The notes under the pieces were generated by a model. That model did no database searches. It was given only the letters and a program-made list of their open reading frames with translations, and had not been told where the DNA came from. Positions 10,507-37,500 of a DNA stretch of 64,000 nucleotides are shown here, piece after piece. The translations under genes and the position numbers were made by a program. Location of the stretch: NCBI GenBank assembly GCA_030390025.1, contig CM059432.1, positions 17,858,001 to 17,922,000 on the forward strand, read 5' to 3'. Source of the stretch: Squalus acanthias. Its lineage: Eukaryota. Every line of letters starts with the position of its first letter. The stretch's first letter is position 1.

Positions 10507-10803
10507 AAAGCCTGAAAATGGCAGGAAGATCCTAGGTGCCCTGCTTACTGGATGAAAAACTCAAAAACATGGTTTTAAGCACCCAATCAACACCTGAAAA
10601 AAGCCAAATGACAGATGAAACTTGGAACAACTCGGACTACAGTCATGGGAGGCCTGCAATTAAAGTGTGACAGGCAAATAGGCTTTATCCATGATAAATA
10701 TATTGACATACTTGCGTAGCTTCCCTCGCATTATAAATATTTAAATTTCCATTTTAAAGATTTACTCAAAAATAGTGACAACTGGCGGTTTTGTGGACAA
10801 TAA

Positions 10804-11972: not shown

Positions 11973-12438
11973 AAAGAAAGACTTGCATTTCTATCGCGCC
12001 TTTCACGACCACCGGACGTCTCAAAGCGCTTTACAGCCAATGAAGTACTTTTGAAGTGGAGTCACTGTTGTAATGTGGGAAACATGGCAGCCAATTTGCA
12101 CACAGCAAGCTCCCACAAACAGCAATGTGATAACGACCAGATCATCTGTTTTTGTTATGTTGGTTGAGGGATAAATATTGGCCAGGACACCGGGGATAAC
12201 TCCCCTGCTCTTCTTCAAAATAGTGCCATAAGATCTTTTATGTCACCTGAGAGAGCAGACGGGGCCTCGGTTTAACGTCTCATCCAAAAGACGGCACCTC
12301 AGACAGTGCAGCACTCCCTCAGCACTGCACTGGAGTGTCAGCCTAGCTTTCTGTGCTCAAAGTCCCTGGAGTGGTACTTGAACCGACATCCTTCTGACTC
12401 AGAGGCGAGTGTGCTACCCACTGAACCACGGCTGACAC
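11973..12438 (-). mobile_element. tRNA-derived DeuSINE (SacSINE1-like), full length
   Basis: tRNA head with A box (ttcagtgggtag) and B box (ggttcaagta), Deu-like core (gagacgttaaaccgaggccccgtctg), and L2-like tail aaggcgc.atag/taaatgcaagtc. Confidence 0.85.
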
Positions 12439-13734: not shown

Positions 13735-14830
13735 CAGCAACAACAACTTGTATTTATATAGCACCTTTAATGTAGTAAAACGTCCAAAGGCGCTTCACGG
13801 GAGTATTAAAAGACAAAACATTTGACACCGAACCACATGAGGAGAAATTAGGGCAAGTGAAAGAGGTAGGTTTTAAGTAGAGTCTTAAAGGAGGAAAGAG
13901 AGGTAGCGAGGCGGAGAGGTTTAGGCAGGGAATTCCAGAGCTTTGGGCCCAGGCAACAGAAGGCACGGCCACCAATGGTTGAGCGATTATAATCAGGGAT
14001 GCTCAAGAGGGCAGAATTAGAGGAGCGCAGATATCTCAGGGGGGTTGTGGGGCTGGAGATGTTTACAGAGATAGGGAGGGGCGAGGCCATGGAGGGATTT
14101 GAAAACAAGGATGAGAATTTTGAAATCGAGGCGTTGCTTAACCGGGAGCCAATGTAAGTCAGCGAGCACAGGGGTTATGGGTGAACGGGACTCGGTGCGA
14201 GTTAGGACACGGGCAGCTTTGAATCACCTCAAATTTACGTAGGGTGGAATGTGGGAGGCCAACCAGGAGTGCGTTGGAATAGTCAAGTCTAGAGGTAACA
14301 AAGGCATGGATGAGGGTTTCAGCAGCGGATGAGCTGAGGCAAAGGCGGAGACGGGCGATGTTATGGAGGTGGAAATAGGCGGTCTTAGTTATGCTGCGGA
14401 TATGTGGTTGGAAGCTCATTTCAGGGTCAAATATGACACCAAGGTTGCGAACAGTGTGGTTCAGCCTCAGACAGATGTTAGGGAGAAGGATTGAGTCGGC
14501 GGCTAGGGAACGGAGTTTGTGGCGGGGACCGAAAACAATGGCTTCAGTCTTCCCAATATTTAATTGGAGAAAATTTCTGCTCATCCAGAACTGGACGTTG
14601 GACAAGCAGTCTGACAATTTAGAGACAGTGGCAGGGTCGAGAGAAGTGGTGGTGAGGTAGAGCCGGGCGTCGTCAGCGTACATGTGGAAACTGACGCTGT
14701 GTTTTCGGATGATGTCGCCAAGGGGCAGCATGTAGCTGAGAAATAGGAGGGGGCCAAGGATAGATTCCTGGGGGACCCCAGAGGTAACGATGCGGGAGCG
14801 GGAAGAGCAGCCGTTGCAGGTGCGACGACT
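13735..14830 (-). mobile_element. L2 LINE 3' fragment
   Basis: YADD, LQLNIGKTE, RNLGVIFD, LIHAFVTSRLDYSN; (ttg)n tail. Confidence 0.9.
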
Positions 14831-16800
14831 GCAATATTAACTTGCTGGCCTGAGTGGGAAGCGGCAGCGAGTTTCCCGCCAACCAACCCAGCGAGGAAGA
14901 GGATCGAGGCCAGAAGGGGCAAGTTTTTAAAACTTTCTTTGTTTATTCTCCTCGTGGGTCCAAGAGGAGCAGGAGAGCAGGGGCCCTGATGCTGGGACCA
15001 ATCCCTGCGCCCAGTTCGTGCCAGCCAGCTGGCGTGTACCAGTTTCTAGGCCAAAGTATCAGTTTTAAGAATATTGAGGCTGCTGTGGTTAATTCCTTTG
15101 TTCTGAGTGTACTTTGTTTTTTTTATCCTTCATTAAGTACAACTTTCTTTTCCGGTCAGTGTTCAAACTCAATTGAAATAGTTTATCGAAAATAGCTTCT
15201 TTTTTCTGCATTCCGAAACATTTTGCTCCCAGCATGGCCTGAACAGACTAATCTGTCCATCATTACCTTACTGTCGTTAGTTAAATTCTTCCTCTTCACA
15301 GCTCAGTGAAGTGCTGCTGTATTACATATTTTTTTTTTGACGTTTCTGCAAAATCTCACATTTTAGGAAATGAAATGTAAACATCCAAACTTTTCACCAG
15401 AAAATATTCCTGTGCACTCAAAATGGGGTTAAAAAGGAACTTTTTTCCAGGGTATCAATGCTAACTCAGTGATTTCAATGTCTCCTCCCTTCTCCTGGCC
15501 AATATTTATCCCTCAACCAACATAACAAAAAAACAGATTCACTGGTCATTATCACATTGCTGTTTGTGGGAGCTTGCTGTGCGCAAATTAGCTGCCGTGT
15601 TTCCCACATTACAACAGTGACTCCACTTCAAAAGTACTTCATTGGCTGTAAAGCGCTTTGAGACGTCCGGTGGTCGTGAAAGGCACTATATAAATGCAAG
15701 TCTTTCTTTCTTTCTTCTCCCCCGACCCATCCTCCCCTTCATCTTCATTGTGCAGCGTCATTAGCAGCAGGGAACCAACTCCAACCAGAATATACGGGAC
15801 AAGTGCATTTATTTAAAGGTTAGCTCTAAATCCAAGCTGTTTTATTGGCAAAACTCTGCCGTCCCCTTGACCTTTCACGGAGAGACTCTTCTTGCTGCAG
15901 AGAGCCTTATTTTCATGCACGTCACGTTAAGGAAAGGAAAAATGAAGAACGATTGGTTTTGGAGCCACAGTTTTTCCCTGAATATAAATGAATATGCCCT
16001 CCAGGAATATAAATCCATTGTACACCATAAATTCAAGAAAAGCAGCATCTAAACATACCAGGAGTTGAGTTCCTCACTTTATTCCATCCATTTGTATTTT
16101 TAATCTATTATCCTCATTTGAATTCCTCAAAGATGCCTTTTTAAAAATGATATATACATTTAATATTTGTTTTTATAGCTAAATAAGTGGAGAATTGAAT
16201 CCTGCTCCAGCCAGACCTGCTCTGGTAACGTGCATTAACCCTAACCGTAGAAGGTCATCCTCTTTTGCAACAGCGTTATATTCCCATTTCTCATTCTTAT
16301 GGGTTCTGAGTGAATTACTGATCTTTGGGTGGTTTTTGTGCTTTGGTCAATACCCCTTCGGAATTGGCTTGAGACTTCTCAAATTTATTCTACAAAGGAG
16401 CCTTACTGCTAACAGACAGAGGAGACTTTCATCCGATCACTCAGATTCAGACTCAGCTTTGAGGTGAAAGGCCAGGAGGGTAATCAACTGAACTACCCAG
16501 TACCCATTCGGATTGATGTTAACCTTTGACACAGGGAGAAATCAGTGCATCCATGTATTATGGAAATGATATTTTATGAATACACTTGGAATGTGGGAGA
16601 TAAATCATACACATTTTATAATGAACAGAGACCTATGCCTTAAATATCACTGCCAGTATGAGATATAACTGGAAGTATATGAAACTGAACAGGGCCTTTC
16701 GTCAACTTTGAAATGATGAAATTCTGGAGCGAGTGTAAGATTTGACATTTTGGGGTGAAAATAAAGCTAATATGCATAACTGAGACAGTGAAAACAACTT

Positions 16801-17494
16801 GGGGGAAAAATTGGGTTGCTTTGCGCCTTCCGTTTAACGGGGCGCAAAGCCCCTAGCGTCTGGGCGCGGTGCCGCTAACGCCTCCCGCGAAATTCAGTGG
16901 GAAGCGTTAGTGGCGGCGGGAGCTGATAGCACCCCGCCGCACTGTGCCTCCGGCAATGGCGTCATCGCCGTGCGCAGCGCCCCGCTCGTGCCCCGGCCGC
17001 AAACTTCAGTTGCGCCCCCTGACCTATCGCCGGACGATATGTCCGACAGGGTCAGGGTGATGGTTTGCAGCCGCGGCGACGCAATTTAAAGGGCAGGTGC
17101 CGGGCGGCCATTTTTATTTTGGCCGACTGCCAGCACCTGCCCCTTCCCCTTTTTTATGCGGGGTGCCGGTCGTGATCGCTCAGCCCGGCACTCCTGCTCT
17201 CTCGGCACACTGCTCCCCGGTGGTCCAGCAAGGCCCCGGTGCACGCTGTGCTAGGCTCCTCCTCTTTAATCAGGGGAGGGAGGCCTGCAATACGTGCATT
17301 GCGCTGTTGCACGTAGCGCCGCTGCGATATTCACTTGTAGCTCCCCAGGAAGGAGGGGGAGCGCTTCCAATAGCGTCCCGCTCCCTCTTGGGGCGCTACC
17401 ACTGAATTTACGGCACAGGGGCGCTAACTTTTTCGGGAAGTAGCACCCCAGCGAAGTTAGTGCCCCAAAGGGGGCACCACTGAATTTTTCCCCC
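16801..17494. mobile_element. Harbinger MITE
   Basis: TIR GGGGGAAAAATT at both ends, perfect TSD CTT, GC-rich with GCGCC/GGCGCTAA motifs. Confidence 0.9.
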
Positions 17495-17507
17495 CTTGAA
17501 TTTACGT

Positions 17508-19971
17508 AACATAAGAACATAAGAACATAAGAAATAGGAGCAGGAGTAGGCCAATCGGCCCCTCGAGCCTGCTCCGCCATTCAATAAGATCATGGCTGAT
17601 CTGATCCTAACCGCCAATCTACTATCTATCACAGAACCATCTCCTGCATCTAACAGAATTGCACACACGAAATAGGAGCAGAATCAGGCTACACAGTCCC
17701 TGGGCCCGCTCCACTACCCACAGGGCCATGACCGATCCGAACCTAGACTCATGTCCAAATTCCTGCCCGCTCCCCGTAACCCTTAATGCCCTTTACTTCT
17801 AGGAAACTGTCTATTTCTGTTTTAAATTTAATTAATGTTGTAGCTTCTACAGCTTTTTGTGGCAGCATATTCCATGGACCTACCACCCTCTGAGTGAAGT
17901 AGTTCCTCCTCATCTCAGTTTTGAAAGAGCAGCCCCTTATTCTAAGACTATGTCCCCTAGTTCTCGTCTCACCCGTCATCGGGAACATCCTCCCCGCATC
18001 CACCCGATCCAACCCCTTCACAATCTTATATGTTTCAATAAGATCGCCTCTCATTCTTCTGAACTCCAATGAGTAGAGTCCCAATCTACCCAACCTCTCC
18101 TCATATGACCACCCCCTCATCCCCGGGATTAACCGAGTGAACCTTTTTTGCACTGCCTCGAGAGCAAGGATGTCTTTCCTTAAGTAAGGACACCAAAACT
18201 GTATGCAGTATTCCAGGTGCGGTCTCACCAATACCTTGTACAACTGAAGCAATACCTCCCTATTTTTATATTCTATCCCCCTAGCAATGAAAGCCAACAT
18301 TCCATTTGCCTTCTTAATCACTTGCTGCACCTGCATACTAACCTTTTGAGTTTCGTGCACCAGGACCCCCAGATCCCTTTGCACTTCAGTACTCTCCAGT
18401 TTCTTGCCATTAAGATAATAAATTGCTCTAGGATTTTTCCTGCCAAAGTGCATCACCTCACACTTTCCAGTGTTGTATTCCATCTGCCAAATCTCTGCCC
18501 ACTTACTTAGCCTGTCTATGTCCCCTTGCAGGTTTTTTATGTCCTCCTCACTCACTACTTTCCCTCCCATCTTTGTATCATCTGCAAATTTTGATATGTT
18601 ACACTTGGTCCCTTCCTCCAAATCGTTAATATAGATTGTGAAGAGTTGGGGACCCAGCACTGACCCCTGTGGAACACCACTAGTTACTGATTGCCAGTCT
18701 GAGAATGAACCATTTATCCCAACTCTTTGCTTTCTGTTAGATAGCCAATCCTCTATCCATGCCAGAATATTACCCCCAATCCTGTGATTTTTTACCTTAA
18801 GCAATAATCTTTTGTGTGGCACCTTGTCAAATGCCTTTTGGAAGTCTAAATACACTACGTCCACTGGTTCCCCTTTATCCACTCTATATGTTACTTCCTC
18901 AAAGAACTCCAGCAAATTTGTCAAACATGACTTCCCCTTCGTAAAACCATGCTGACTTTGTCCTATTAAATTATGATTATCCAAATGTCCTGTTACTGTT
19001 TCCTTAATAATGGACTCCAAAATTTTACCTACCACAGATGTTAGGCTAACCGGTCTATAGTTACCAGCCTTCTGTCTACTGCCCTTTTTAAATAAGGGTG
19101 TTACATTAGCAGTTTTCCAGTCTGCCGGGACCTTAGCGGAATCCAGGGAGTTTTGAAAAATTATTACCAATGCATCTACAATCCCTACCGCCACTTCCTT
19201 CAAGACTCTAGGATGTAAGCCATCAGGTCCAGGTGATTTATCCGCCTTGAGTCCCATTATTTTACCGAGTACCACTTCCTTAGTGATTTTGATCGTGTTT
19301 AGCTCCTCTCCCCCTATAGCCCCCTGTTTGTCCAGTGTTGGGATATTCTTAGTGTCCTCTACTGTAAAGACTGATACAAAATATTCATTCAGTGTTTTTG
19401 CCATCTCCATATTTCCCACCATTAATTTCCCGGTCTCATCCTCTAAGGGACCAACATTTACTTTAGCCACCCTTTTTCTTTTTATATAACTATAAAAACT
19501 CTTACTATCTGTTTTTATATTTTTTGCTAATTTACTTTCATAATCTATCTTCCCTTTCTTAATCAATCTTTTTGTTATTTTTTGCTGCCTTTTAAAGTTT
19601 TCCCAATCCTCTGTCCTCCCACTAGATTTCGCTACCTTATATGCCCTTGTTTTTAGTCGAATACTATCCTTAATTTCTTTACTTAGCCACGGATGACTGT
19701 CCTTTCTTTTACACCCTTTTCTTTTCAGTGGAATATATTTTTTTTGGAAGTTGTAAAATAACTCCTTGAATGTACACCACTGATCATGTGTCGTCTTACC
19801 CTTTAATCTATTTTCCCAATCCACTCTACTCAATTCCGCTCGCATACCTTCATAGTCTCCTTTATTCAAGCTTAGCACGCTTGTTTGAGATCCAACCTTC
19901 TCACCCTCTAATTGAATATGGAATTCAACCATGTTATGGTCACTCATTCCAAGGGGATCCTTTACTAGGAC
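17508..19971 (-). mobile_element. Young 5'-truncated CR1 LINE with ~740 codons of open ORF2
   Basis: RT motifs YRPVSLTS, GVPQGSVLGP and KFADD; (ttcttatg)n tail. The first ~40 aa of the listed ORF come from flanking DNA. Confidence 0.95.
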
Positions 19972-20910
19972 ATTTTTAACATTAGTAACATCCTCAGGAC
20001 ATCTCAAAGCACTTCTTATCCAATGAATCAGTTTTGATGTGTTGTCACTGATGTCATGTAGTAAATACAGCAGCCAATTTATGCACAGCAAGATCTGACA
20101 TACAGTAAATGAGAGGAAGACAGAAGGTGTTAGAAATGGAAATGTCCCACTGATGTATTAGGGCTTCTCTTTTAAGGTTGGGGCGGAGGAGCATTTGGCC
20201 TATTCATACCTGACCTGGAAATGTTTAACGTGGACAGTGAGTGACGAAATTGGCAATTTCCCCAGCATTGCCATCCCTCACCTTAATGAGCACAAAGTCC
20301 ACGTTGAGTAAAACTAGAGGCTCCAGCTGAAATCTATGGATATCATAAGTTATATACCACTCCCAATCACAGACATATCCTCAGGCACTAGTTTATTAGG
20401 GTTTGATGTGTGGAGGTTACAATGACTGAGAATAGGCACAAAGGGACAGATATATGTGGAGAAAAAAAATTCTGTTCGATGTTCACAATAAACTAATAAA
20501 AATACCACGGATAGAATCTGTGATGGTTTGCTCAGCGATGGGGCGCTATGTTTGGAATTCTTGTGAGGAACTACCTCCAGAAACAGGTTCTTCCACCCCG
20601 GGCACTAATTTGCTCTGGGTGGCCCGGAGTGGATTGGAAAACCAAGCAGTAAATTAGCTCATTCGCCCAACAACAATTTCTCCCTATTTAGAGTGGAATT
20701 CCCAAATTTAAATCCGCTAACGTCTGCCAAGTGGATTTTCTGCGATGTGCCAGCCAATCCCTTCAACCTCCACAAAGTTCACCAAGGAGCTGAGTAGTAA
20801 TCTTACTCATTCAGCACTGCCTGACTGGGAGGAGGAAGCAGGTCCAATAGTAACTTTCAAAAGGGAATTGGATATATACTTGAAAAGGAAAAAATGTGCA
20901 GGGCTATGGG

Positions 20911-21068
20911 CAATGTTCCCTTTAAGCTGCGCGGCTGCCCGGCGCTCTGGAGGTCCCGCGCAGCCAGTTCGCCAGCTTTAAAATGGAAAAACCGCGCATG
21001 CGCAGAATTTTGATTGGGCCGCGCAGCCCGTTAATGCATGGCCCAAAAAAAAATTAGAGGGAACATTG
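20911..21068. mobile_element. Short non-autonomous DNA transposon, hAT-like
   Basis: 15-bp TIR CAATGTTCCCTYTAA. Left flank gctatggg, right flank gctatg then a SINE (consistent with an 8-bp TSD). Truncated relative at ~55098-55157. Confidence 0.7.
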
Positions 21069-21073
21069 GCTAT

Positions 21074-21526
21074 GAAAGACTTGCATTTATATAGCGCCTT
21101 TCACGACCACCGGACGTCTCAAAGCACTTTACAGCCAATGAAGTACTTTTGAAGTGGAGTCACTGTTGTAATTTGGGAAACGCGGCAGCCAATTTGCGCA
21201 CAGCAAGCTCCCACAAACAGCAATGTGATAACGACCAGATAATCTGTTTTTGTTATGTGGGTTGAGGGATAAATATTGACCAGGACACCGGGGATAACGC
21301 CCCTACTCTTCTTCGAAATAGTGCCATGGGATCTTTTATATCCACCTGAGAGAGCAGACGGGGCCTCGGTTTAACATCTCATCCGAAAGACGGCACCTCC
21401 GACAGTGCAGCACTCCCTCAGCATGTCAGGCTAGCTTTGTGTGCTCAAGTCCCTGGAGTGGGACTATGAACCCACAACCTTCTGCCTCAGAGGCAAGTGT
21501 GCTACCCACTGAGCCACAGCTGACAC
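21074..21526 (-). mobile_element. DeuSINE, full length
   Basis: Collinear with 11973-12438. Confidence 0.85.
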
Positions 21527-23566
21527 TAGAGGAAAGAGCGGGTGAGTGGGACTAATTGGATAGCTCTTTCAAAGAGCCAGAACAGGCACGATGGGCCAAA
21601 TAGCCGCCTTCAGTGCTGTATGATTCTATGTTTAAAAAAACACTGAAAGCTTTTTGTTTTGAAAAGAATCAGAAACTTTGAGGTGGTCCTTCTTGTGGCT
21701 ACTGGGAGGTATAACATTTAGCATCACTCAGATGGGAAGATTGTGTTCCATATCTGACAGATTTACCTTAATATTAATAATTTAACATACAAAGATAGCA
21801 CGCTCACAATTTCTGATGTTTGTGTCGGAGACCAAAGCCCTGTTGGTAGCACAAATCTGGTGTAAAAAAACTGGAACAATTGTCCTTTCCCCACCAGCAC
21901 AAGCAACAGGAATTATGGGCTGCATTCTGTATTCCATTCTTAATTAGAATTCTCTCTTTGTGGATCGAGTATCTAAGGCATTCAGCAAACTCGTGGATGA
22001 TTTATTAGAACAGCAATCACACACACGCCCAACAACACTGTGTTTTTCTGTTTGTCATCTGCTCTCTCTCCCTCTTTATGTGTCTGCAGGCTGGGTTCTC
22101 CTCTGTGATCCTGCTCACAATGGGGCCGAATACTGGTGGAGAGAATGCAGCAAAATCCAGCAGTGAGGTCTACCACTGCCTCACCGCCACAACCTGGATT
22201 TCGCTCCCTCCACTGGCCCCCCCCCTCCCCAACCAACCAACAAGCAAATGATGGGGATTACCCGCCGCAGTTGAATCGGCTGCTGGCAGCCACTGTTGAG
22301 ACCAAATGACAAAATGGCCGCAGGGGTAGCATAGCCAGAACATGTGGAACCATATCCCAGCAAAAGTCAGTGCCGTCAGGAAAGGAGGATCGAACACAGG
22401 AAGGGGGTAAAATAAATAAATACAAACAACCATCGCGAATTTCCTGTGAGAAACTTTCCTCTTCACATTCACGCTGAGTTCTACTACTAGTTCTGATACA
22501 CAGATTGCAGACTGTATCATGACTTAAATGTTTTCGTTTTCAGGTTCAACAGGGGGCTCCATAATTGACAGCGACTGAGCCACAGTATTTACCCAACATG
22601 AATAAAGTTTGGTGAGGTGCAGGACTGTTCCAAACACTGACTGTACTGAATGCCAGACCCCAACAGGGCCTTTATTCGTTGTTTTTCGCTGAGGCCTGTT
22701 GCTTTGCTCTGAACTCAGTATTCGTAATTTGCTGTTAGTTGTTTAGTGGAACTGCTCTGTTTATACTGAGGGACCCCTCCAGGAATTAAGAAGGACGCAA
22801 GCATAAAAAGAAAATGGCCTCCCGCGCTCTGAAAGCTGCCTCCTTTCTGTTGCTGGCTCACGCTTCTGTTTCCGCCCACTTGCTTGCTTTGTTGGTTCTG
22901 CTGAATTTTAGCTAAATTTAAAAACGAATTAGAAGGCACACAAATGATTTACTTTTATTAAATCGGTGACTATGCATCCAACAATGCATGTCTTCCGTGT
23001 GCACTTGCATGAGTAGATGATTTTAATAAACAGTTTTGCGCCTTTTATTTTTGCCTCCTACTCAAGTCTCTCCCTTCTTTTCCTGAAGACAGCGATGTGA
23101 GTTGGGCTTCAGTTCTGTAGGCTACAGTAGCTCTAGCAAAAGAAAAAAAAGAAAGACTTGCATTTATGTAGCGCCTTTCATGACCTCAGAGCGTCCCAAA
23201 GCGCTTTGCAGCCAATGAAGTACGTTTGGAGTGTAGTCACTGTTGTAATGTGGGAAACACAGCAGCCAATTTGCGCTCAGCAAGCTCCCACAAACAGCAA
23301 TGTGATAATGACCAGATCATCTGGTTTTTTTGTTATGATGATTGAGGGATAAATATTGGCCAAGACACCGAGAATAACGCCTATGCTCTTCTTCAAAATA
23401 GTGCCATGGGATCTTTTACGTCCACCTGAGAGAGCAGACACGGCCTCAGTTTAATGTCTCATCCAAAAGACAACACCTCCGACAGTGCAGCACTCCCTCA
23501 GTACTGTACTGGAGTGTCAGCCTAGATTTTTGTGCTCTGGTCTTTATAGTGGGACTTGAACCCACA

Positions 23567-24333
23567 AATGATTTGGATGAGGGAACCAAATGTAATATTT
23601 CCAAGTTTGCTGACGAAGGTGTCCTTGTACACCAGTCACTCAAAGCAAACATGCAGGTGCAGCAAGCAGTTAGGAAGGCAAATGGTATGTTGGCCTTCAT
23701 TGCAAGAGGATTTGAGTACAGGAGCAAGGATGTCTTACTACAGTTATACAGGGCCTTGGTGAGACCACACCTGGAGTACTGTGTGCAGTTTTGGTCTCCT
23801 TATCTAAGAAAGGATATACTTGCCATAGAGGGAGTGCAGCGAAGGTTCATCAGACTGATTCCTGGGATGGCAGGACTGTCGTATGAGGAGAGATTGGGTT
23901 GACTAGACCTGTATTCACTAGAGTTTAGAAGATTGAGAGGGGATCTCATTGAAAGGTATAAAATTCTGACAGGGCTAGACAGACTGGATGCAGGGAGGAT
24001 GTTTCCCCTGGCTGGGGGATCTAGAACGAGGGGTCACAGTCTCAGGATATGGGGTAGGACATTTAGGACTGAGATGAGGAGAAATTTCTTCACTCAGAGG
24101 GTGGTGAACCTGTGGAATTTTCTACCACAGATGGCTGTGGAGGCCAAGTCACTGAATATATTTAAGAAGGAGATAGATAGATTTCTAGACACAAAAGGCA
24201 TCAAGGGGCATGGGGAGAGAGCGGGAATATGGTATTGAGATAGAGGATCAGCCATGATCATATTGAAAGGCGGAGCAGGCTCGAAGGGCCGAATGGCCTA
24301 CTCCTGCTCCTATTTTTCTATGTTTCTATGTTT
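23567..24333 (+). mobile_element. CR1 3' fragment with internal deletion, inserted in a DeuSINE
   Basis: KFAD joined directly to GVLVHQ; RPHLEYCVQFW; (tttctatg)n tail. Confidence 0.85.
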
Positions 24334-25146
24334 CTTCTGCCTCAGAGGCGAGAGTGTTACACACTGAGCCAAGTCTGACTCTAAAATAGTACTACTATAG
24401 TGCCTCATTTAAGTAGCCATTCATTCGGGAGCCCAGACAGAGTGTTCTGGCTGGCTACTCAACCACGAGGGAATCGCAGGTGAGCCCGATCTTGTCTGTA
24501 ACTGAAGGCCACAAACCTGCGCCGTCTGTCAGGGCTCACTGAACTGAGATTAGGAGCGCAGATCATTTTCACCTGTTTCTCTTTCATTTTCTGATTCACC
24601 CTCTCTCCCCGTAAGAAGTGGCCTGGGCCTCCAGTCAGCCTGCCCAACCCCTCCCATGTAAATGGACCGCTGCCAGGGCAATTCCAGGGACCAATTTCAG
24701 GTCCATCACTCAATGTGGCAGTGCAGAGTTGGACCAACTCACCGGTTCAAGTCCTATCTGCTTCTTAAATGCTGGCGACATTGCAAGTGTAGCTATGCCC
24801 CATGCTTTTTAACTGCCTCGGGAAATGAGCCAAGAGATGACTCACCATCTTATCGTGCTCAAGATAAGGATAGAGAAAATCTAACTCCATTATGAGAATA
24901 CTAGCAAAGGGGTCATAATATATTTCTTATATCAATACAAGTTAATTAGTGAAACAAGATACCATCATGAAATTTGATGAGAAACGGCAACTGGTGATAT
25001 TTTTCACAAATGCCAAGGAGGACCCATCAAGAAAGACGAAAGGAGTTTATTACAGCAAAGCAGCAGATATTACATTACATAGAATTGCAGCACAAAAACA
25101 GGCCATTCGGCCCAACTGGTCTATGCTGGTATTTATGCTCCACATG

Positions 25147-25590
25147 AGCCATGACTCAGCTGGTAGCATTCTTGGCTCTGAGTCTAGAAGGTTGTGGGTT
25201 CAAGTCCCACTCCAGAGACTTGAGCACAAAAATCTAGGCCGACACTCCAGTGCAGTGCTGAGGGAGTGCTGCACTGTCGGAGGTGCCGTCTTTCAGATGA
25301 GACATTAAACCGAGGCCCCGGCTGCTCTCTCAGGTGGACGTAAAAGATCCACGGCACTATTTCGAAGAAGAGCAGAGCTGGCCAATATTTATCCCTCAAT
25401 CAACATCACTAATACAGATTATCTGGTCATTATCACATTGCTGTTTGTGGGAGCTTGCTGTGCGCAAGTTGGCTGCTGTGTTTCCCACATTACAACAGTG
25501 ACTCCACTTCAAAAGTACTTCATTGGATGTAAAGCGCTTTGGGACGTCCTGAGGTCATGAAAGGCGCTATATAATTGCAAGTCCTTCTTT
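25147..25590 (+). mobile_element. DeuSINE. Further copies or fragments at ~15494-15714(+), 23140-23569 with 24334-24379(-), 29120-29328(-), 34602-34922(-), 36422-36518(-) and 56045-56330(-)
   Basis: Same head, core and tail. Confidence 0.85.
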
Positions 25591-26121
25591 ATTTTTTTTC
25601 TCCCACCCTACTTCAGCTAACCCTATCAAGATCTGCTTCTATCCCTTTCTGCCTCATGTACTTATCTAGTTACCCCTTAAATGCATCTATGCAATTCGCC
25701 TCAACCACTGCTTGTGGTAGCGAGTGTTCCACATTCTAACCGCCCTCTGGATAAAACAATGCAATAACTCAACCTGCATATTGCTTCTGTGTAAAATGTA
25801 TGATGGAATGGTTCTGCTCTGCACCCATCCTTAAATCACATTGGAGTGGGCCTCAAACAGGCAGGCTGGATACAATCTACGTCTGCGGCTAATACAACAG
25901 ACATCATTGCTAACCGACTGACACCACAAAGCGAAGCAAATCAATGAACACAAAGCATTCAAATTGTCTAAACGAGGCAATAAAAATTCCCTTTGTGTCT
26001 CCCCTCTCTATTAACAGTGACATTAACAAAATATGATGTGGAGATGCCGGCGTTGGACTGGGGTGGACAAAAATGAGAAGTCGCACAACACCAGGTTATA
26101 GTCCAACAGATTTATTTAATT

Positions 26122-26160
26122 TTACAAGCTTTCGAAGCAGTTCGCTCCTTCGTCAGGTAA
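26122..26160 (-). ncRNA. Minimal type I hammerhead ribozyme motif
   Basis: UUAC CUGACGA A GGAGC-gaacu-GCUUC GAAAGCUU GUAA: stem I UUAC/GUAA, palindromic AAGCUU helix III, NUH = CUU. Confidence 0.72.
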
Positions 26161-28190
26161 GTTAGCAATGAGAGAATCTCCCAGAATTCACAATTTAAAC
26201 CCAGACAAAATCTATTCACATTATTCCCTACAACAAAGAGCACAGCCAAGACAATGAGATGTGTCCCAACAAAATAGGTATCAGGCGTAGACTTACACAG
26301 AACCTACAGCACATAAACAGGCCATTCAGCCTGAGAAAATAAGCGTGTACGGAATGGAAATAAAACATTCAGCCCATCAAGCTTGTTCCTTCCACATATC
26401 ATGTACAATTGCTACCTGCCATGTACTCTACATGGATGGACTCTACTATAGCCATATATTTTCCTGAAATCTCTCCCTGCCAACCAAAGAAGTCAAACTC
26501 AACAATATCCATCCACACATAACTATGCAGCATTTACCTCCGTTACCCAACCCCAGCCAGTTGCTTTCCATTGAAGTTCTTGCAATACCCTCAAACTGTA
26601 TGAAACTCATCTGAAAATGTAACACTTCAATATCATCAGGGATAATGTGACAAGGAAGCAATAGATTTAAGGAAAGTAAGGCAGTCTGACGTTCAAGGGT
26701 TGTTACAAATAACTTTTCACAATTTTGAAAACCCATCTATTTCAGTGCATTACCTCCTGAAAATTGCAAACCTGCAGAGAATAATGGGAATATTGAAGAA
26801 ATGTGAGGCAGAGATTCTTAAAAAAAAAATCAGATAACTGTTTGAGCACTTGATCTAGATAAATATTCTGTGATAAAATCTGGAGGGGAGGAGAAGACCA
26901 AATGGGAGAAATGTAATTCACGGTTGCCCGTTATTCCAGTGTAAAATCTGCATTAGACCTCCGAATTTCACATCGTGCCTTGCCCAAACTGCGCTGGAAG
27001 TGTGCCGGACACCACCTTAGCTCGGGTGACTTTTGGTTGTCTGGGGTGCCCGCCTGAACAGGCATTAGGCTCCTTAAATGTGCAAATCAGGGTCCTCTGC
27101 CAGTTGTAGGACCCCAAATGCAAAATGCGAGTACAAATGGGCTGAGCGTGCCCCGCACACTCTGCCTGGTTGTACCAGGTGGTGAGCGAGCTAACCAGTG
27201 ATCCTTAAAGAGACCGCTGAAAATGCCCAGAAAGGATTTATTTTTTATGTCTTGCTGCTGTCCCCTTCAGGTCACTCCCCAGGTTCACCTCCCCCCTTCC
27301 AGACTTGGCCTGCTGGCCAGCTCAGCCTAAGAGCAGGCCAATTCCACCCCCGCCCCTTGACTAACAACCTGCGGAAGGGCACCCATTTTGCTCAGGCCGA
27401 CCCTGCAGTCGCTCCGCTGACTTTCCCAAGTCTTTATTTAACTTGATACTGGGGGCCAGTACCCACAGCCACATTCTTGTGAAATATGTGCAACATTTCT
27501 TTGAACTGACTAAAGATCATAGAAATACCGAGAAAATGTGAAACATCTGTATAATGTAAATGGCTCATCAAATGTTTGTACGTTATCTGGGTAGATCTTT
27601 CATCTTACACATCCTCTTCTTAAAGCCATGTTACCTTCAGATTGTTTTGGGAAGTTATCTCACTACTGTGGGAGCCTAGAATACCATTTCCAATAGTGGC
27701 ATCTCCTCTGGATATCAATGAGAGACGTATCATAAACACACGCACTTATACCACATCCAAACTTGTTGATATAAATAAGAGACAAAGGTTAGAGGGGATG
27801 GTCTTTTATATTGCACTCTTCATACATACTCCCACAACAACAACAACAACTTGTATTTATATAGCGCCTTTGACATAGTAAAAGGTCCCAAGGTGCTTCA
27901 CAGGAGCGTTATCAAACAAAATTTGACACTGAGCCACATAAGGAAAAATTAGGGCAGATGAAGGAGGTGGGTTTTAAGGAGCGTCTTAAAGGGGGAAAGA
28001 GAAGTAGAGAGGTTTAGGGAGGAAATTCCAGAGTTTTGGGCCTCGGCACCTGAAGGCACGGCCGCCAATGGTTGAGTGATTAAAATCAGGGACGCTCAAG
28101 AGGCCAGAATTAGAGGAGCGCAGATACCTCGGGGGTACACACACACACGGAATATAATAGCTTGGTTTATGTAAATGATATGGAACTGAC

Positions 28191-28292
28191 CTTTGACCGA
28201 TCAATCTGATTGGCTCCTAACTCAAACAGCCTTTCCACAATAGTCAATTTGCTATCTCGAACAGCGATCAAAAGCGGGGTCAGACCAGATTC
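28191..28292 (-). CDS. trpn1: TRPN1/NompC coding exon 2, first ankyrin repeat (ESGLTPLLIAVRDSKLTIVERLFELGANQIDRSK)
   Basis: 102-nt phase 0/0 exon with acceptor TTTTGATTTGCAG| and donor |GTCAGT. The GLTPLLIAV...ERLFELGAN ankyrin motif matches recalled NompC repeat 1 (TGMTPLMYATKDNKTAIMDRMIELGADV). Too short to appear in the ORF track. Confidence 0.88.
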
Positions 28293-28584
28293 CTGCAAAT
28301 CAAAATACATCACGCTTAATAAAACAAATACCTTTCAAAGCTTGTTTAATTGAAATCCGCTTTCATGAAAATGTAGAATCGTCAAATGAAAGTCCCCGAT
28401 TCGAGCACTGGTCCACGCTGAGTTAGAGCATCAGCTGGCACTGCGGTGAGAACTCTAGAACTGGCCTCAGTGCCCCTGGATTAGGGGACAAAAATCAACC
28501 AGGGTTCCCCATTCTGGTGGATATCCTGTAAACCCTGCTGAAAGCACATCTGAGCGGACATTGGGCTAAGATAGTAATTTTTTA

Positions 28585-29112
28585 AAATTAATTTATGGAA
28601 TGTGGGCATCGCTGGCAAGGCCAGCATTTATTGCCCTTGAGAAGGTGGTGGTGAGACGCCTTCTTGAACCACTGCAGTCCATGTGGTGAAGGTACTCCCA
28701 TAGTGCTGTTAGGGAGGGAGTTCCAGGATTTTGACCCAGCGACGATGAAGGATCGGCGATATACTTCTAAGTCAGGATGAATGTGTGACTTGGAGGGGTG
28801 GTGTTCCCGTGTGACTTGGAGGGGTGGTGTTCCCGTGTGACTTGGAGGGGTGGTGTTCCCGTGTGACTTGGAGGGGTGGTGTTCCCGTGTGACTTGGAGG
28901 GGTGGTGTTCCCGTGTGACTTGGAGGGGTGGTGTTCCCATGCGCCTGCTGCCCTTGTCCTTCCAGGTGAGAGGTCGCAGGTTTGCGAGTATGCTGCAGTG
29001 CATCTTGTAGATGGTACACACTACAGCTACGGTGCGCCGGTGGTGGAGGAAGGGAATGTTTAAGGTGGTGGATGGGGTGCCAATCAAGCAGGCTGCTTTG
29101 TCCTGGATGGTC
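28585..29112 (-). mobile_element. 3' fragment of the same CR1-group LINE, containing a 26-bp array
   Basis: Reverse complement of ~51800-52240. Confidence 0.8.
28783..28938. repeat. 26-bp minisatellite, 6 identical copies
   Basis: Unit gtgtgacttggaggggtggtgttccc x6, no spacers. Confidence 0.95.
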
Positions 29113-30355
29113 TTTGTCTTTGAAATAGTGCCACGTGATCTTTTACATCCACCTGAGACAGCAGACAGGGCCTCAATTTAACTTCTCATCCGAAAGACAG
29201 CACCTCTGACATTGCAGCACTCCCTCAATCAGCCTAGATTTTTGTGTTCAAGTGTCTGGAGTGGGACTTGAACCCACAAACTTCTTGACTCAAAGGGGAG
29301 GGTACTACCAACTGAGCCACGACTGGCACATGAAGAGTGAATGACCACTTGGGCAAGGTAATGGAGAACAACCATCACTTGTGATGTTGTAGCCCAGAAA
29401 GGAGTGAAAGTCTCAGAAAAAGAACCCGCCAACTTAGCTTAAACACCGCATCATTATCCAGTTATGAAAAATGAATGGTCTCTGGTCTTTGTCACATCAC
29501 TATAATTATCTTGAATTTACAGGGTTGATTAGAAATAGAAAGCAAGAAAAAAGCCAGTAATTAAAAACAATGGGTTTCTTTGCCAGAGATCAAGGTTGCA
29601 ACTGCTTTGCTTTACCCAATCACTGTATAGTCAAGGCTATGACATAACTAAGAACTTTATCTGTGGAACTTAAATCCATGAAAAATCCATGTTTTCCAGT
29701 TTAGTTTATTCACATTAGGATGATGGGGGAAATAAAAATATTTCCAGTTTAATAAATAATCAATCTTGGGGCAAGATCTTGCACAAATATGCAGTTTGCA
29801 CTTAAACTATATCAAATGAATCAAGCTGGGCTTCCATGACAGATGATGAGCAAAATGGAACAAATCAGCATTTTAGAATTGTCTGTCATTAGATATGTTA
29901 TACAATTGAGTCAAAGCAAATCTTTTCGATTCAGTGGAAAGAGAATCAGGCAAGGTATAAAGCGGGTGCCCATTCACTAGCACCCATTTTTCAACCAGCG
30001 ATAAACGTTAAAATGACCCCCCCAGCGCCTTTTATTTCAGAATTAGCTGATCACCTGTGGCATTGTTTACGGGTGGTCTGGTTGTGGGCCTGCACTTTGC
30101 TCCATGGGCAGAACCCCAAAATTAGACCGGAAAATGCACCCAATGCTGTGCCTACTTTGCCGATGTGAAGTCACTTATTGTAATTGAAAATAAGGAAATG
30201 GCAAACTTGCTAAATAATCACTGTGCATCGGTCTTCACGGTAGAGGAAGAGGATAAAGTACCAGAGATACGAGGACAACTAGAAATAAATCAAGAGGACT
30301 TAGATGAATTAATAGAGCGCCGTATATCCAAATTCGCTGACAACACTAAATTAAT

Positions 30356-33020
30356 AGGAACATAAGAATTAGGATCAGTCCCCTCGAGCCTGCTCTGACA
30401 TTCAATAAGATCGTGGCTGATCTTTGACCTCAACTCCACTTTCCTGCTCCGATTTCCATATCCCTTGATTCCCCTAGGGTCCAAAAATCTATCAATCTCA
30501 GCCTTGAATATACTCAACGATTCAGCATCCACAGCCTTTTGGGGTAGAGAATTCCAAAGATTCACAACCCTCTGAGTGAAGAAATTTCTCCTCATCTCAG
30601 TCTTAAATGGCCGACCCCTTATCCTGAGACTATGCCTCCTAGTTCTGGACTCTCCAGCCAGGGGAAACAACCTCTCAGCATCTACTCTGTCAAACCCCCT
30701 CAGAATCTTATATGTTTCAATGAGATCACCTCTCATTCTTCTAAACTCCAGAGCGCATAGGCCCAATCGACTCAAGTTCTCCTCATAGGACAACCCTCAC
30801 ATCCCAGGGATCAATCTAGTGAATCTTCATTGCACTGCCTCTAAGGCAAGTATATCCTTCCTTAGATAAGGAGATCAAAACTGTGTACAGTACTCCAGGT
30901 GTGGTCTTACCAAAGTCCTGTACAATTGTAGCAAGACTTCCTTACTGTTCTACTCCAACCCCCTTGCAATAAAGGCCAACATGTCATTTGCCTTCCTAAT
31001 TGCTTTCACTAACACTGTGTTTCCTGAACACCAACATTTAATAGTTTCTCACCATTTAAAAAAATTCTGTTTTTCTATTCTTCCTACCAAAGTGAATAAC
31101 CTCACATTTCCCCACATTATCTCTATCTGCCACCTTCTTTCCCACTCACATAACCTGTCTATATCCCTTTGCAGACTCTTTGGGGGTGATTTTGCCAGCC
31201 CTGGGGAGGCGGGTTTGGAGGCAGGACTGCCGGGAAAATGGCAGAATTTGGGGGCGGGTGCCCAACCCGCCCCCAACCCACCTCCATGCCATCTTCCCAG
31301 GAGGTGGGTAGCCGTCCTGCGCCGGGTCCTGTCTCCTTGGAGGCGGGAAGGGATTAAAGCCAATTAACTGCCTGTTAACAGGTAGTTAACAGGCAGAAAA
31401 TAGGATTATCCCCTTTTTGCCCACATAAACGCGGGCTTCCTGAATGCTCCAAAACCTGCCAGGGTCACCGAGGCGAGTAGTGGGTCTGCGGGGGTCTGCG
31501 GGGGTCAGAAGGGTCCAAAAGTGCGCTGTGAAGGTGAGTGATGGGTGCAAGTGTGGAGAGGTGAGTATCTGAGGTAAGTGCAAAGTGTTAGAAAAAGTGT
31601 ACTTACCTTTGTTTCTTCCTGCAGGCTTCAGTCGGTGGGTATGCGGAGAGTCTCGCACCTCCGCGGCAGAGATGACAGATGGCCGTTGCATTCTCCAATG
31701 CAATAACCAGCTCATTTCTACAAAAGAAAGAGGTTTGATGAGGTCTTGAATTCAAGACCTCATCAAACTACAGAGAATGTCAGTGTTTGACAGCTTCACA
31801 GAGCTGTCAAACGATGACAATTCATCTGTCAAAAATTTTTGACAGATGAAACGTCATACGTTGACATTCTCTGTAACCGGCTTTCCCTTAATTGGCCTGC
31901 TAAGCCCGCTGGACGGGCTTAACAAGGTCAATCAAGGGAAAATAGCGTGGGTTGGCCAGAAGTTGTGGGAGGTGGGACTGAAACCCAACAAGTGGGAGTC
32001 CCGCCTCCAAAAGCTCCCCATTGGCAAAATCCAGCCCTTTGTGTCCTCCTCACAGCTTACTTTCCCACCTAACTTTGTATCGTCAGCAAACTTGGATACA
32101 TTACACTCGGCCCCTTCATCTGAGTCATTAATACAGAGTGTAAATAGCTGAGGCCCAACACTGATCCTTGCAGCACCCCACTAATAACAGCCTGCCAAGC
32201 TGAAAATGACCTGTTTATTTAAGAAAAGCCTCAATTTCAAAATTCTCATCCTTGTTTTCAAATTCCTTCCTGGCCTCACCCCTCCCTATCTCTGTAATCT
32301 CCTTCAGACCCACAACCCCCCGAGATATCTGCGCTTCTCTAATTCTGCCCTCTGGAGCATCCCTGATTATAATCACTCAACCATTGGCCACCGTGTCTTC
32401 TGTTGCCTAGGCCCTAAGCTCTGGAATTCCTTCCCTAAACCTCTCCGCCTCTCTACCTCTCTTTCCTCCTTTAAAACACTCCTTAAAACCTACCTCTTTG
32501 ACCAAGCTTTTGGTCATCTTCCCTAATTTCTCCTTATTTGGCTTGGTGTCAAATTTTTTTGTCTTATAATACTCCTGTGAAGCGCCTTGGGACGTTTTAC
32601 TATGTTAAAGGCGCTATATAAATACAAGTGGTTGTTGTTGTTGAACTCTCTGTTCTCTGTCTGTTAACCAATCCTCTATCCATGCTAATATATTACCCTC
32701 AATCCCATGAGCCCTTATCCTGCATAACAACCTTTCGTATGGCACCTTGTCGAATGCCTTTTGAAAATCCAAATATACTACATCCACTGGTTCCCCTTTA
32801 TCTACCCTGCTAGTTACATCCTCAAAAAACTCTAATAGATTTGTCAAACACGATTTCCCTTTCATAAAACTATGTTGACTCTGCCTAATCATATTGTGAT
32901 TTTCTAAGTGCCCTGTTACTACTTCTTTAATAATGGATTCCAGCATTTTCCCGATGACTGTTGTCAGGCTAACTGGCCTGTAGTTCCCGGTTTTCTCTCG
33001 CCTTCATTTCTTGAATAGCG
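30356..33020 (-). mobile_element. CR1 split by a MITE (31182-32037) and an L2 (32220-32643)
   Basis: RT pieces at 32614-32946 and 30290-30793 are collinear across the insertions. Confidence 0.8.
31182..32037. mobile_element. Harbinger MITE with an internal palindrome cassette
   Basis: TIR GGGGGTGATTTTGCCA / GGGCTGGATTTTGCCA(rc), TSD TTT. It splits a CR1 at gcagactc-ttt-gtgtcctcc. Confidence 0.88.
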
Positions 33021-33815
33021 TGAGGTCGTTCACTTTGGACGTAAGAAAAGTAGCTCAGAGTATTTTCTAAATGGAGAGAAGCTAGAAACTGTGAAGGAGC
33101 AAGACAGATTTAGGGGTCCAAGTACAGAAATACAGAAATCACTAAACACGAGTAGACAGATACAAAAAATAATGAAAAAGGCTAATGGAATGTTAGCCTT
33201 TACCTCAAAGGGGGCTGGAATACAAAGGGGTGGAAGTTATGCTGCAGTTGTATAAAGCTCGGGTTAGACCCCATCTGGGGTAACAGCATTCAGTTTGGGG
33301 CACCACACCTCAGGATGGATATATTGGCCTTGGAGGGGGTACAGCACGGATTCACCAGAATGATACCGGGGCTAAAAATGTTAAACTATGAGGACAGGTT
33401 CCATAGACTAGTCTTCTATTGTCATGTCTGTAGAAGATTGAGAGGTGACCTAATTGGGGTGTTTAAGATAATTCAAGGATTTGAAAGGGTAAATAGAGAG
33501 AAACTATTTCCTCTGATGAATGGGAGTCCAGAATAAGGGGGCATAACCTTAAAATTAGAGCTAGCCCATTCAGAGGTGATGTCAGGAAACACTTCTTCAC
33601 ACAAAGGGTAGTGGAAATCTGGAACTTACGCCTCCAAAAAGCTATTGAAGCCAGATCAATTGAAAATTTCAAACCTGAGATGGATAGATTTTTGTTAGGT
33701 AAGGGTAGTAAGGGATATGGAACCAAGGCGCATAAATTAAGATACAGATCATCCATGATCTAATCGAATGGCAGCACAACCTCAAGGGGCTGAATGGCCT
33801 ACTCCTGTTCCTATG
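33021..33815 (+). mobile_element. Old CR1 3' part; probable 5' part at 30165-30355
   Basis: Degenerate RT C-terminus and CR1 3' stem-loop. Confidence 0.7.
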
Positions 33816-36800
33816 TACGCCCAAGTATCCTCCCAGTCTCAGTAGAATACGTCCGGACTTAAAATAGGCAGAAATCAGCGTAAACAATCGAGGCCCAAGG
33901 AAACCCACACCAGTACATTTCTTCTTTGAGTCTTAAAATTTAAGTTTCAACTCATTTAACCACCATTCATGCACATCAGGCACAGCATGTTCAAGAAACT
34001 GCAATCAGGGAGGTTTTTCAATTTTTAACGTGACTTGTACTTATGCCATAAAAATACAAGAACCGAAAAATACAGCGCAGGCCTCCCCAAGCATTTTTTT
34101 TTATAAGCACTCAAAAAACTGCAATTACAAGACCAGAAAAATGACTTTATTACCAGTTGCGCCTGAAAATCTGGTCGCAATGTTGAGAGAGCCCCCCAGT
34201 GAACAAGCACAATTAGAGGATACTCACATTAGAGAGTTGGGTGTGTGGCCAATGTCGTGGGCAGAGACTCGTTGAGACGAAAGGTTTGATGGACAGATGT
34301 AAAAGATCGAGCAGACTTGGGCGCATTGTAGTTAGGAGTGTAACTCACTTACGTCCAAAATTCCACGATCTTTTAAGCCACGTAATTTGTTTGCACCCAG
34401 ATTACGGGCATATCTGGGTGCAAATGACAATGAAACTCCAGGCCATGATGTTTAGTTGTTGTTCTGGCCTGTCTCTTTAAGGCCTTTGCTCAAGTATGCT
34501 TGGTTCATTTAAAAATACAAAGCTTTTAATAGCTGCTCACTGGAATGTAAACATGGTCGTATTTAGGCAACAATTAACCGCAAAGACTTTTTTAGGCATT
34601 ATAAAGAAAGACTTGCATTTATATAGCGCCTTTCACAACCTCAGGACGTCCCAAAGCGCTTTACAGCCAATGAAACACTTTCGAAATGCAGTCACTGTTG
34701 TAATGTAGGAAACGCAGCAGCCAATCTATGCACAGCAAGCTCCCACAAACAGCAATAAGATAATGACCAGATAATCTGTTTTTAGTGATGTTGATTGAGG
34801 GATAAATATTGGCCAGGACAAGGGGGATAACTCCCCTGCTCTTCTTCAAAATAGTGACAAGGGATCTTTTACATCCACCTGAGAGAGCAGAGTTCTTGGT
34901 TTAAAATCTCATCCGAAAGACAGACGAAAAGTATGTGTAGTGTTAAATGCAATATAAGCATCAATATACATTTCTGTGCGCACTCCAGAAAAAATACATC
35001 TGCTCCCAAGGAGAAATACCCTATTATATGCACTTGACTATTTTCAATAAATGAAGAACGCACCCCGAAGAACCCCTTTCAGGTGCAAAAAAAGTTGTTC
35101 ATTTCATCAAAACAAAATTACAATCCTAATTTCTTTATTTTAAAACTAGATCTATGGTTTTGAACTTTTTATCCATGTGAACAATTTGTTTGGATTGACT
35201 TTATCAATATCCTTCACAATTATGAAAACCTTAATTCACTGCAGTCTTCTGTTTTCCAATGAGAATGAACTCGGCTTCCTCAACCTTTCGAGACACCTGT
35301 CTCTACCTCTGTACTGTTTTCCATTTGTGTCCTGTTCATTCATCTTATGCAGCTATCCCTCAACAAGCCAAGTCAATTACTTGAAGAATGAAGGAAATGC
35401 TCTCACACATTTGGCTCAACGCGCTTAAACTGTCAAAAAGTTGTTTACCAGTGTCCCCTTTCAGCTAAACTAAATTTATTATTAGTCTATTTAGACACAA
35501 AGATTACAAGGAACAGACACCAGCAGTTTATGCATTGCTGAATTTCTGTAACACAGTAAATCATCTAGTAACTTCCCACAACTTGCACTTTCAATAAAAA
35601 TGACTCCTTTCAAACACTCTATGAAATTAATGCGTTTCCTTTGGTAAATATTTAACCTGATCTCTTTGATATCGTAAATATAATTTAATAACGATGTATG
35701 TTTTATCCATTCATCTGTCATTAAATTGTAATCATTATTTACTAGTTGATCTGTGGCATTGCACATGGGTAGTCAAAACCAAGTGTATTTTCAAGGCAAG
35801 CAGGGTTATAGAGCAGGCAATAACTGGACCAGGGAGTGCAGATATAATTCAGTCCTCATTTTAAAGTGGTACATTCTGTTCTTAAATTCCTATGCCCACA
35901 TTTTTAATAGAAAATGTCTATGTAAACTTCTCATGTCATATTTACACACGTGCTCCAGTAGTGGCACCTTAGCACCTCCGCTGGCAGGAGGATGTAATTA
36001 CAATGTGACCAGTTTACATACGCAGTTTCCATTATATCGACCTGAAACGTTAACTCTGTTTCTCTCTTCACAGATGCTGCCTGACCTGCTGAGTTTCTCC
36101 AGCATTTTCTGTTTTTATTCCATAATAAATGTGGACATAGAAGTTTCTCATGGAGAAAATGGACAGGGAGTGTGTGCAGATGTAAGATTTTTAATGTATT
36201 GTTTCCTTACATGACAACAGTGGTCATACTTCCTAGAACCAGGGGGAGTTGAGGAGAATTTTTTTTACGCCGTGACTTGTTATGATCTGGAATCTGAAAG
36301 GGTGGTGGAAGCAGATTCAATAGCAACTTTCAAAAGGCACTTGGATTTATACTTGAAAAGGAAAAAAAAATTGCAGGGCTATGGGGAAAGAGCAGAGGAA
36401 TGGGACTAATTGGATTTTATCAGACTTACATTTCTATAGCGCCTTTCACGACCACCGGATGTCTCAAAGCGCTTTACAGCCAATGAAGTACTTTTGGAGT
36501 GTAGTCACTGTTGTAATGGACAGCTCTTTCAAAGAGCCGGCACAGGCACGATGGACCGAATGGCCTCCTCCTGTGCGATATTATTCTATGATTCACAATG
36601 GGAAGTTTATGATAGTCCAACATAAAGCATCCCTGAACTAATACTCATGACTTAAGGGGCCTTGGTTTATTTTAAATAGTTTATTTCGAAAAAAAATTGT
36701 CAAGCTACCTTAAGATAGCATCAAGTCCTTATTAAAATACTGCCCTGGTGATTGCAGCCTTGTTTTCAGAACAATTTATTTTTCTTTGATAGAGTGCTCT

Positions 36801-37081
36801 TCTGGTGAACTCATTGTATGACCTTTATCTGATTTATCAGTCAGCTGCTCTCGGGAGCACACACATTCCAACTCCAACTACTGAAATACGATTTGTCCTA
36901 TTTGAGAGATTTAACATTCATCCCCCCTTACACACATACATATATATATATATATATACACACATATAAGTTTGGCCACATGACCATTAAGAGGGAAAAA
37001 AAAAACTCGGTTGCCCTTAAGCGGGTCAGCCTGCAGCAACAAGTAGAATGAATGACAAGTAGGAAGAAAAAAGTTACACAC

Positions 37082-37231
37082 TTCGTCGATGAGAGTGATG
37101 TCTCGATCTCCCTTGTCCATGCCTTTCAGAGCCTGTTCCAGGGCACTCCATTCTCCCCTGGTAGCCAGCTGTAAAATCCGGCTGCCTGAACCCACGGTCG
37201 ATCCAGAGCTGATGGAACTCGTCTCCGACAT
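37082..37231 (-). CDS. trpn1: TRPN1/NompC mechanosensitive TRP channel, coding exon 1 (MSETSSISSGSTVGSGSRILQLATRGEWSALEQALKGMDKGDRDITLIDE)
   Basis: 150 nt from ATG to a GAA|GTGTGT donor (phase 0). RILQLATRGEWSALEQALKGMDK resembles the recalled NompC N-terminal helix (fly KVLGLAMKSEWTPIEAELKKLEK). It joins in frame to exon 2. Confidence 0.85.
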
Positions 37232-37500
37232 CTTCCCAACATTTGATCCACTCCTTCAACCAACGTCTCCCTGTTCGAATCGCTTCCCTTCTCCCACCCC
37301 ACCCCCCCTCCCTGGCTGGGACTATTCCGCTGTGCCGCTTTGTGCCATGGCAGGTGTGGCTGCTTGTAAATTTCACTCTGATCGATGGTCCATTTCACTC
37401 TCCCTTTCTCTTTCTTTGCGGGAGGTAGAGACTAGAGATTGGAGCTGGCGTTTTCTCTTGATCGGCACCAATCAGGACCCTCAGTCTGCACTCGTTAAAC

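Follow-up and report, generated by a model that had tools for sequence, protein, structure and literature searches.

Two exons of Squalus acanthias as the probable 5′ end of a TRPN1/NompC channel gene

TRPN channels carry about 28 ankyrin repeats, which are presumed to act as a gating spring, and in the fly the channel is bound to ciliary microtubules, according to the passages on this family in PMC4494053. The same passages describe TRPN as single copy in each bilaterian genome. Among chondrichthyans, TRPN1 is a named gene in at least 11 species (15 of the 25 members of the largest cluster were listed), and the TRPN1 protein of Chiloscyllium combines ankyrin arrays with an Ion_trans domain. 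Here, we describe two short exons in a 64,000-nt stretch of Squalus acanthias DNA (GCA_030390025.1, CM059432.1, positions 17,858,001-17,922,000, forward strand), which we refer to as the window. By sequence comparison, they belong to the cartilaginous-fish orthologue of TRPN1/NompC.

An earlier note on this DNA, made from its letters, had proposed two exons 8.8 kb apart with canonical splice sites. This was confirmed, as both exons lie on the minus strand and are bounded by GT and AG in phase 0. In the direction of the gene, the locus reads as follows:

37232..37274, minus strand: minimum 5′ untranslated region (UTR) contiguous with exon 1, drawn from contigs reaching 37243, 37265 and 37274
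37082..37231, minus strand: TRPN1 coding exon 1, residues 1-50, 150 nt, ATG at 37231, phase-0 GT donor at 37081
28293..37081, minus strand: intron 1, 8,789 nt, GT...AG, phase 0, filled by fragments of long and short interspersed elements (LINEs and SINEs) and a minisatellite
28191..28292, minus strand: TRPN1 coding exon 2, residues 51-84, 102 nt, one ankyrin repeat, symmetric phase 0-0
1..28190, minus strand: first part of intron 2, at least 28,190 nt, with no exon 3 or later exon by tblastn

The identity of the exons was examined with protein searches and a tree. Exon 1 was used to query the longer proteins in a search of 5.8 billion sequences, which gave 34 candidates and six matches. All six (E 1.6e-16 to 7.9e-16) are chondrichthyan-type TRPN1 proteins or N-terminal fragments; three are named TRPN1 (two from Heterodontus, one from Hemitrygon) and three are short, with other names or none. 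When Heterodontus TRPN1 was compared to the window with tblastn, exon 1 (E 1.7e-19) and exon 2 (E 1.2e-13) were recovered, and the next match had an E value of 0.6. Identity to this protein is 44/50 in exon 1 (residues 1-50) and 34/34 in exon 2 (residues 51-84), and another retrieved protein (P0196; P numbers are our handles for retrieved proteins) is identical to exon 1 at 46 of 50 positions. The matches to the two exons adjoin, with zero residues between them, in 83 of the 123 proteins retrieved. In most insect proteins, some 10 additional residues separate the regions; the others have one region missing or are unrelated ankyrin proteins. The exon 1|2 and 2|3 boundaries, after residues 50 and 84, recur as the edges of skips or insertions in the models of other species.

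The joined 84-residue peptide scored 149 bits against shark TRPN1 and at most 36 bits against a set of 69 generic ankyrin proteins. In a tree of the exon pair (23 rows, 84 columns), the window row falls among the sharks (support 93/99) and inside the chondrichthyans, where support is weak (87/73). The nearest full-length relative, a Heterodontus protein (P0002), scored 1550 bits against Drosophila NompC, 407 against ankyrin and 154 against TRPA1. Best match and tree both point to orthology with named TRPN1, and the exons were not found to be closer to generic ankyrins or TRPA1. The earlier note had called the gene a TRPN1 orthologue in a cartilaginous fish and had looked to the joined peptide to match TRPN1 ahead of other ankyrin proteins; both the best matches and the bit scores bear this out.

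Exon 1 encodes a Ser-rich leader, followed by a helical cap-like segment that Pfam leaves unscored; no Pfam family matched this exon. An in-frame TGA is present 9 codons 5′ of the TRPN1 ATG. The acceptor of exon 2 is a T-rich tract ending in CAG, a GT donor follows the exon, and the two exons joined give 84 codons with zero stops. Exon 2 matched Ank and Ank_3 in Pfam with E values of 0.002-0.005, under the curated cut-offs. As the earlier note remarked, this exon is missed by the open reading frame (ORF) track: it is absent from the window’s list of stop-to-stop ORFs of at least 100 aa. To find exon 3, tblastn was run with residues 85 to the end of six chondrichthyan TRPN1 proteins (E<=1) and residues 85-117 of four (E<=5). 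Within the window, this returned only exon 2 itself and noise, and intron 2 must therefore be at least 28,190 nt long. Exon 3 had been expected to begin with DGRxALHxAA. Shark orthologues do carry this motif, but the exon was not found in the window.

Two small features accompany these exons. Another ATG, out of frame and with a weak start context, precedes the TRPN1 start by 11 nt and begins an overlapping ORF of 38 codons (37242-37126, minus strand). One protein, P0004, has the same upstream residues, which may hint at conservation. The minisatellite of intron 1 (28783-28938) is a perfect array of six 26-bp units inside a repeat.

Transcription of the locus was examined by aligning read contigs from four (X1, X5, X6 and X7) of the nine runs listed for this sequence, each of which contained fewer than half of its words, to positions 28140-37860. 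We took X1, X5 and X6 to be RNA, which is a guess as to their type; they come from two studies and two coded organisms, with the tissues unnamed. X7 behaves as DNA from a more distant relative. One contig from each of X1, X5 and X6 (649, 1036 and 2359 nt) covers exon 1 and 12-43 nt of UTR with 1 difference each. All three stop matching at 37081, the exon-1 donor, and have a further 464, 842 and 2,196 nt beyond that point. At exon-2 positions 28266 and 28275, exactly the depths of these contigs (16.6, 11.4 and 35.3) are seen again; at 28357-28545 the depth is 0. Three unique bins in intron 1 have a depth of 0 in X1, X5 and X6 and of 31-47 in X7. Because the contigs end at the donor, the exon depths are equal and the intron bins are empty, we infer spliced transcripts. 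Contig depths and lengths suggest that exon 2 is part of these transcripts and that they extend by up to about 2.1 kb beyond it, into further exons.

Taken together, we consider it very probable that the exons are the 5′ end of an intact, transcribed shark TRPN1 that continues to lower coordinates past an intron of more than 28 kb. The locus is most likely an expressed, ordinary TRPN1 orthologue. Judging from its orthologues, the full protein would have about 1,640 aa, about 28 ankyrin repeats and a TRP pore domain. Several points weigh against this reading. Only 84 of the roughly 1,640 residues are visible within the window, with exon 2 the single repeat in view, and exon 3, the ankyrin array and the pore domain are all outside it. 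The closest retrieved protein shares 78/84 residues with the window exons and none is identical, which means that the full-length protein of this species was not recovered; a search of shorter proteins for a peptide of this species that bears exon 3 gave 69 matches, none identical, made up of known fragments and generic ankyrins. The joint between exons 1 and 2 is deduced rather than read directly, in runs whose type as RNA is a guess. Finally, a survey of TRP channels in catshark sensory organs does not list trpn as enriched in its entries for ampullae, eye and brain/olfactory tissue, and its table has no ear or lateral-line column (PMC11979771 Table 3).

Different explanations of the two exons were weighed on this evidence. 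It is very hard to credit that they come from a non-TRPN ankyrin protein, such as ankyrin, a PP6 regulatory subunit, ASB18 or gankyrin, or from TRPA1, and we regard this as refuted. Such an origin is what the structure database would suggest for exon 2 alone, as ankyrin-1/2 and designed ankyrin repeat proteins (DARPins) ranked above NompC in PDB. However, this ranking adds up many weak repeat matches. Generic repeats dominate it, and it is not diagnostic alone; NompC (5vkq, best stretch at residues 126-152) is one of two rows among the first 20 in which a single stretch passes on its own. Exon 1 found only two PDB matches, both with E>1, and NompC was not among them. The top protein match of exon 1 carries the name “26S proteasome subunit 10-like”, but the oddly named matches are near letter-for-letter copies of TRPN1 residues 1-117. 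In addition, generic ankyrin proteins (65 in the per-exon scoring) reached at most 20 bits with exon 1 and 31 bits with exon 2.

The exons could also be a detached 5′ piece: either TRPN1 is truncated or a pseudogene here, or exons 1-2 alone were recently copied in a segmental duplication, with the working copy elsewhere or lost. The lack of an exon 3 within 28 kb would fit, as would three shark and skate annotations in which the N-terminus is a separate short model (P0001, P0006 and P0190). However, neither exon is interrupted by a stop, their splice sites are canonical and together they share 93% identity with an intact orthologue; the near-identical contigs extend 464, 842 and 2,196 nt beyond the exon-1 donor; and intron 1 is itself already 8.8 kb and filled with repeats. 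The same three species also have a long model of the remaining gene (P0192, P0195 and P0199), which points to annotation splits rather than loss. We find a detached piece improbable. Less probable still, to the point of being negligible, is that an inversion, either real or an assembly artefact, has flipped a 19.5-kb block containing the promoter and exons 1-2 between opposite LINE copies, which would cut the exons off from their gene. An inverted pair of 1,594 bp with 4 differences (17511-19104 and 38592-40185) does bracket both exons, but the sequences on either side of the 38592-40185 copy are two collinear halves of a single older repeat, and recombination between the LINE copies would have parted them. 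These flanks align to 52245-51736 and 51731-51454, about 5 nt having been deleted at the target site, and an inversion in this haplotype was rejected.

With the exons read as the start of an ordinary TRPN1, a function can be proposed from the family. By analogy, the protein would be a cation channel in which the ankyrin array serves as a gating spring tethered to microtubules. The N-terminal ankyrin repeats are the microtubule-contacting end. Exons 1-2 would supply the first 84 residues, at the pore-distal end of the array. The likely site of action would be microtubule-based cilia, e.g. the kinocilia of hair cells in the ear and lateral line, or other ciliated epithelia. Reviews place TRPN1 in the kinocilia of Xenopus and zebrafish hair cells (PMC13734937; PMC6406257), and one of them recounts that TRPN1 knockdown in zebrafish abolished hair-cell responses (PMC13734937). 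In its passages on hair cells, the same review concludes that the core transduction pore is not a TRP channel and regards the part played by TRPN1 in vertebrate hair cells as undecided (PMC13734937); another source names TMC1 as that pore (PMC10801851). Because of the kinociliary location, the exclusion of TRP channels from the core pore and the naming of TMC1, we lean toward an accessory ciliary mechanosensor in the shark, by analogy with these species, and not a stereociliary transduction pore. A place as the shark’s main transducer seems unlikely, and action in other tissues is about equally so. An electroreceptor role would be slightly more doubtful again; the catshark survey recovered trpn (PMC11979771) and did not list it as enriched in ampullae, which lends such a role little support. 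In the literature searched, with most subscription journals outside its scope, we found no study devoted to the function of TRPN1 in sharks.

Exon 2 may be of interest for a different reason. Its skipping would remove one ankyrin repeat in frame (102 nt, phase 0-0), and in a comparison of 36 hand-picked TRPN1 gene models, exactly residues 51-84 were missing from five: Heterodontus isoform X4, P0196, Amblyraja, Polypterus and Carassius. These models span two sharks or shark relatives, a skate, a bichir and a carp. Heterodontus isoform X1, unlike X4, has these residues. Many other isoforms are without blocks of 33-39 or 66-69 aa elsewhere in the protein. One speculative explanation, which we hold to be rather unlikely, is that exon 2 is a conserved cassette exon and that regulated skipping of one-repeat exons tunes the length or tethering of the TRPN1 spring in vertebrates. 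These are automatic gene models, and tolerated splicing noise from symmetric exons is an equally good explanation. PMC4494053, where it discusses short TRPN forms, treats them as faulty models. No skipping of exon 2 was seen at this locus, the cluster look-up showed no other isoforms for the species of P0196, and within the literature covered we found no study on exon skipping in vertebrate TRPN1. If true, regulated skipping of one-repeat exons would change the gating spring, and this is the one angle on the locus that could matter.

The searches also showed how this gene is annotated in public databases. The earlier note had warned that such genes are easily filed as generic ankyrin proteins, and examples were plentiful. 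In Scyliorhinus canicula the N-terminus goes under the name “26S proteasome subunit 10-like”, in Amblyraja it is called “ASB18-like”, and “PP6 regulatory ankyrin repeat subunit” is the label on many full-length orthologues. In S. canicula, S. torazame and Amblyraja, a short N-terminal model stands beside a long model without the N-terminus (P0001/P0192, P0006/P0195 and P0190/P0199), and the long S. canicula model begins with unrelated sequence. In the white shark model (Carcharodon, P0191), 22 additional residues stand where exons 1 and 2 join. As a separate observation, one lamprey species has two divergent TRPN-like proteins (P0032 and P0077), one of them on a long branch, in a family described as single copy.

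One claim of the earlier note, that TRPN1 is lost in amniotes, did not hold. This was the view in 2015, when TRPN loss was placed at the amniote root in the relevant passage of PMC4494053. Our protein search recovered full-length turtle and tuatara proteins under generic ankyrin or “uncharacterized” names. In a tree of full-length TRPN1 (33 rows, quick method, midpoint root), seven sauropsid proteins (six turtles and the tuatara) form a clade with an SH-aLRT (Shimodaira-Hasegawa-like approximate likelihood ratio test) support of 100 inside tetrapod TRPN1. One turtle protein aligns to NompC residues 79-1692 in one stretch and carries ankyrin arrays and a weak Ion_trans match. The TRPN1-type proteins of turtles and tuatara, which include the seven in the tree, can be listed for reference (P0013-P0016, P0019, P0021, P0023-P0025, P0027, P0040, P0054, P0061, P0063, P0088 and P0095). 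The retention of TRPN1 in turtles, tuatara and alligators is already in print. PMC10776941 states that TRPN is missing only in some sauropsids, and among seven rows of its Table S30, five list TRPN1 (those of two alligators, two turtles and the tuatara) and Anolis and chicken have none; this table is the basis for including alligators. For the tuatara, PMC7116210 reports members of all seven TRP subfamilies. The assumption of a TRPN1 loss throughout the amniotes is thereby corrected.

The rest of the window is rich in repeats. About 43% of it has a second copy inside the window, and when 27 other long ORFs were scanned with Pfam, every match was a transposon-type domain. Neither Rfam families nor tRNA genes were found in the window (0 matches each). 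A pair of very young LINE copies, which we take to be CR1-type, lies at 17511 to about 19970 (minus strand) and 38592-40185 (plus strand), in opposite orientations on the two sides of the TRPN1 promoter and exons 1-2. The copies are 99.75% identical over 1,594 bp (4 differences) and have a reverse transcriptase (RT) domain and an 8-bp tandem tail; a 19.5-kb inversion could arise between them. A near full-length LINE at about 2400-7000 (minus strand) has an ORF1 domain of the GDSL-esterase type, an endonuclease and an RT, and is broken into several frames. A Harbinger-type DNA transposon at about 42459-46731 holds an open DDE_Tnp_4 frame (42809-44131, plus strand, 386 aa from the first Met) and a converging frame with a Myb/SANT domain (45629-46468, minus strand), and may be young and intact. 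No exact terminal repeats of at least 12 bp were found at its ends; a looser look gave short, imperfect, G-rich terminal repeats with an apparent 2-bp AT duplication. A related end-like copy occurs at 41625-41888, and a 54-bp unit is repeated four times at 45774-45995.

As it stands, the locus adds little: TRPN1 already has its name in many shark and ray annotations, and this further orthologue makes the question of TRPN1 in vertebrate hair cells no easier to test. Its value for annotation is in the 5′ exons of TRPN1, which are split off or mis-named in several public models.

The closest known system is the TRPN1 of Heterodontus francisci (XP_067887437.1 and isoforms; P0217, P0002 and P0003), which is identical to the window peptide at 78 of 84 residues and has the same start and the same exon 1|2 and 2|3 boundaries. 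It differs by six substitutions, all in exon 1; it belongs to another species, and the rest of the Squalus gene lies outside the window. The TRPN1 proteins of Chiloscyllium, Hemiscyllium, Carcharodon, Scyliorhinus, Mustelus, Hemitrygon, Hypanus, Mobula and Callorhinchus are in the same register, with 38-43 of 50 residues of exon 1 and 24-32 of 34 residues of exon 2 identical in the models that include them; some chondrichthyan models split off, mis-name or skip exons 1-2 (P0001, P0006, P0190, P0192 and P0195). In turtle TRPN1, 27-30 residues of exon 1 and 21-22 of 34 in exon 2 are matched, and the two matches adjoin. Drosophila NompC (5vkq) is the best PDB match of the full-length shark and turtle orthologues, at 1550 and 1535 bits, and has a longer N-terminus than shark TRPN1. 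TRPA1 is also an ankyrin-repeat TRP channel, but its score with the shark orthologue is about tenfold lower than that of NompC.

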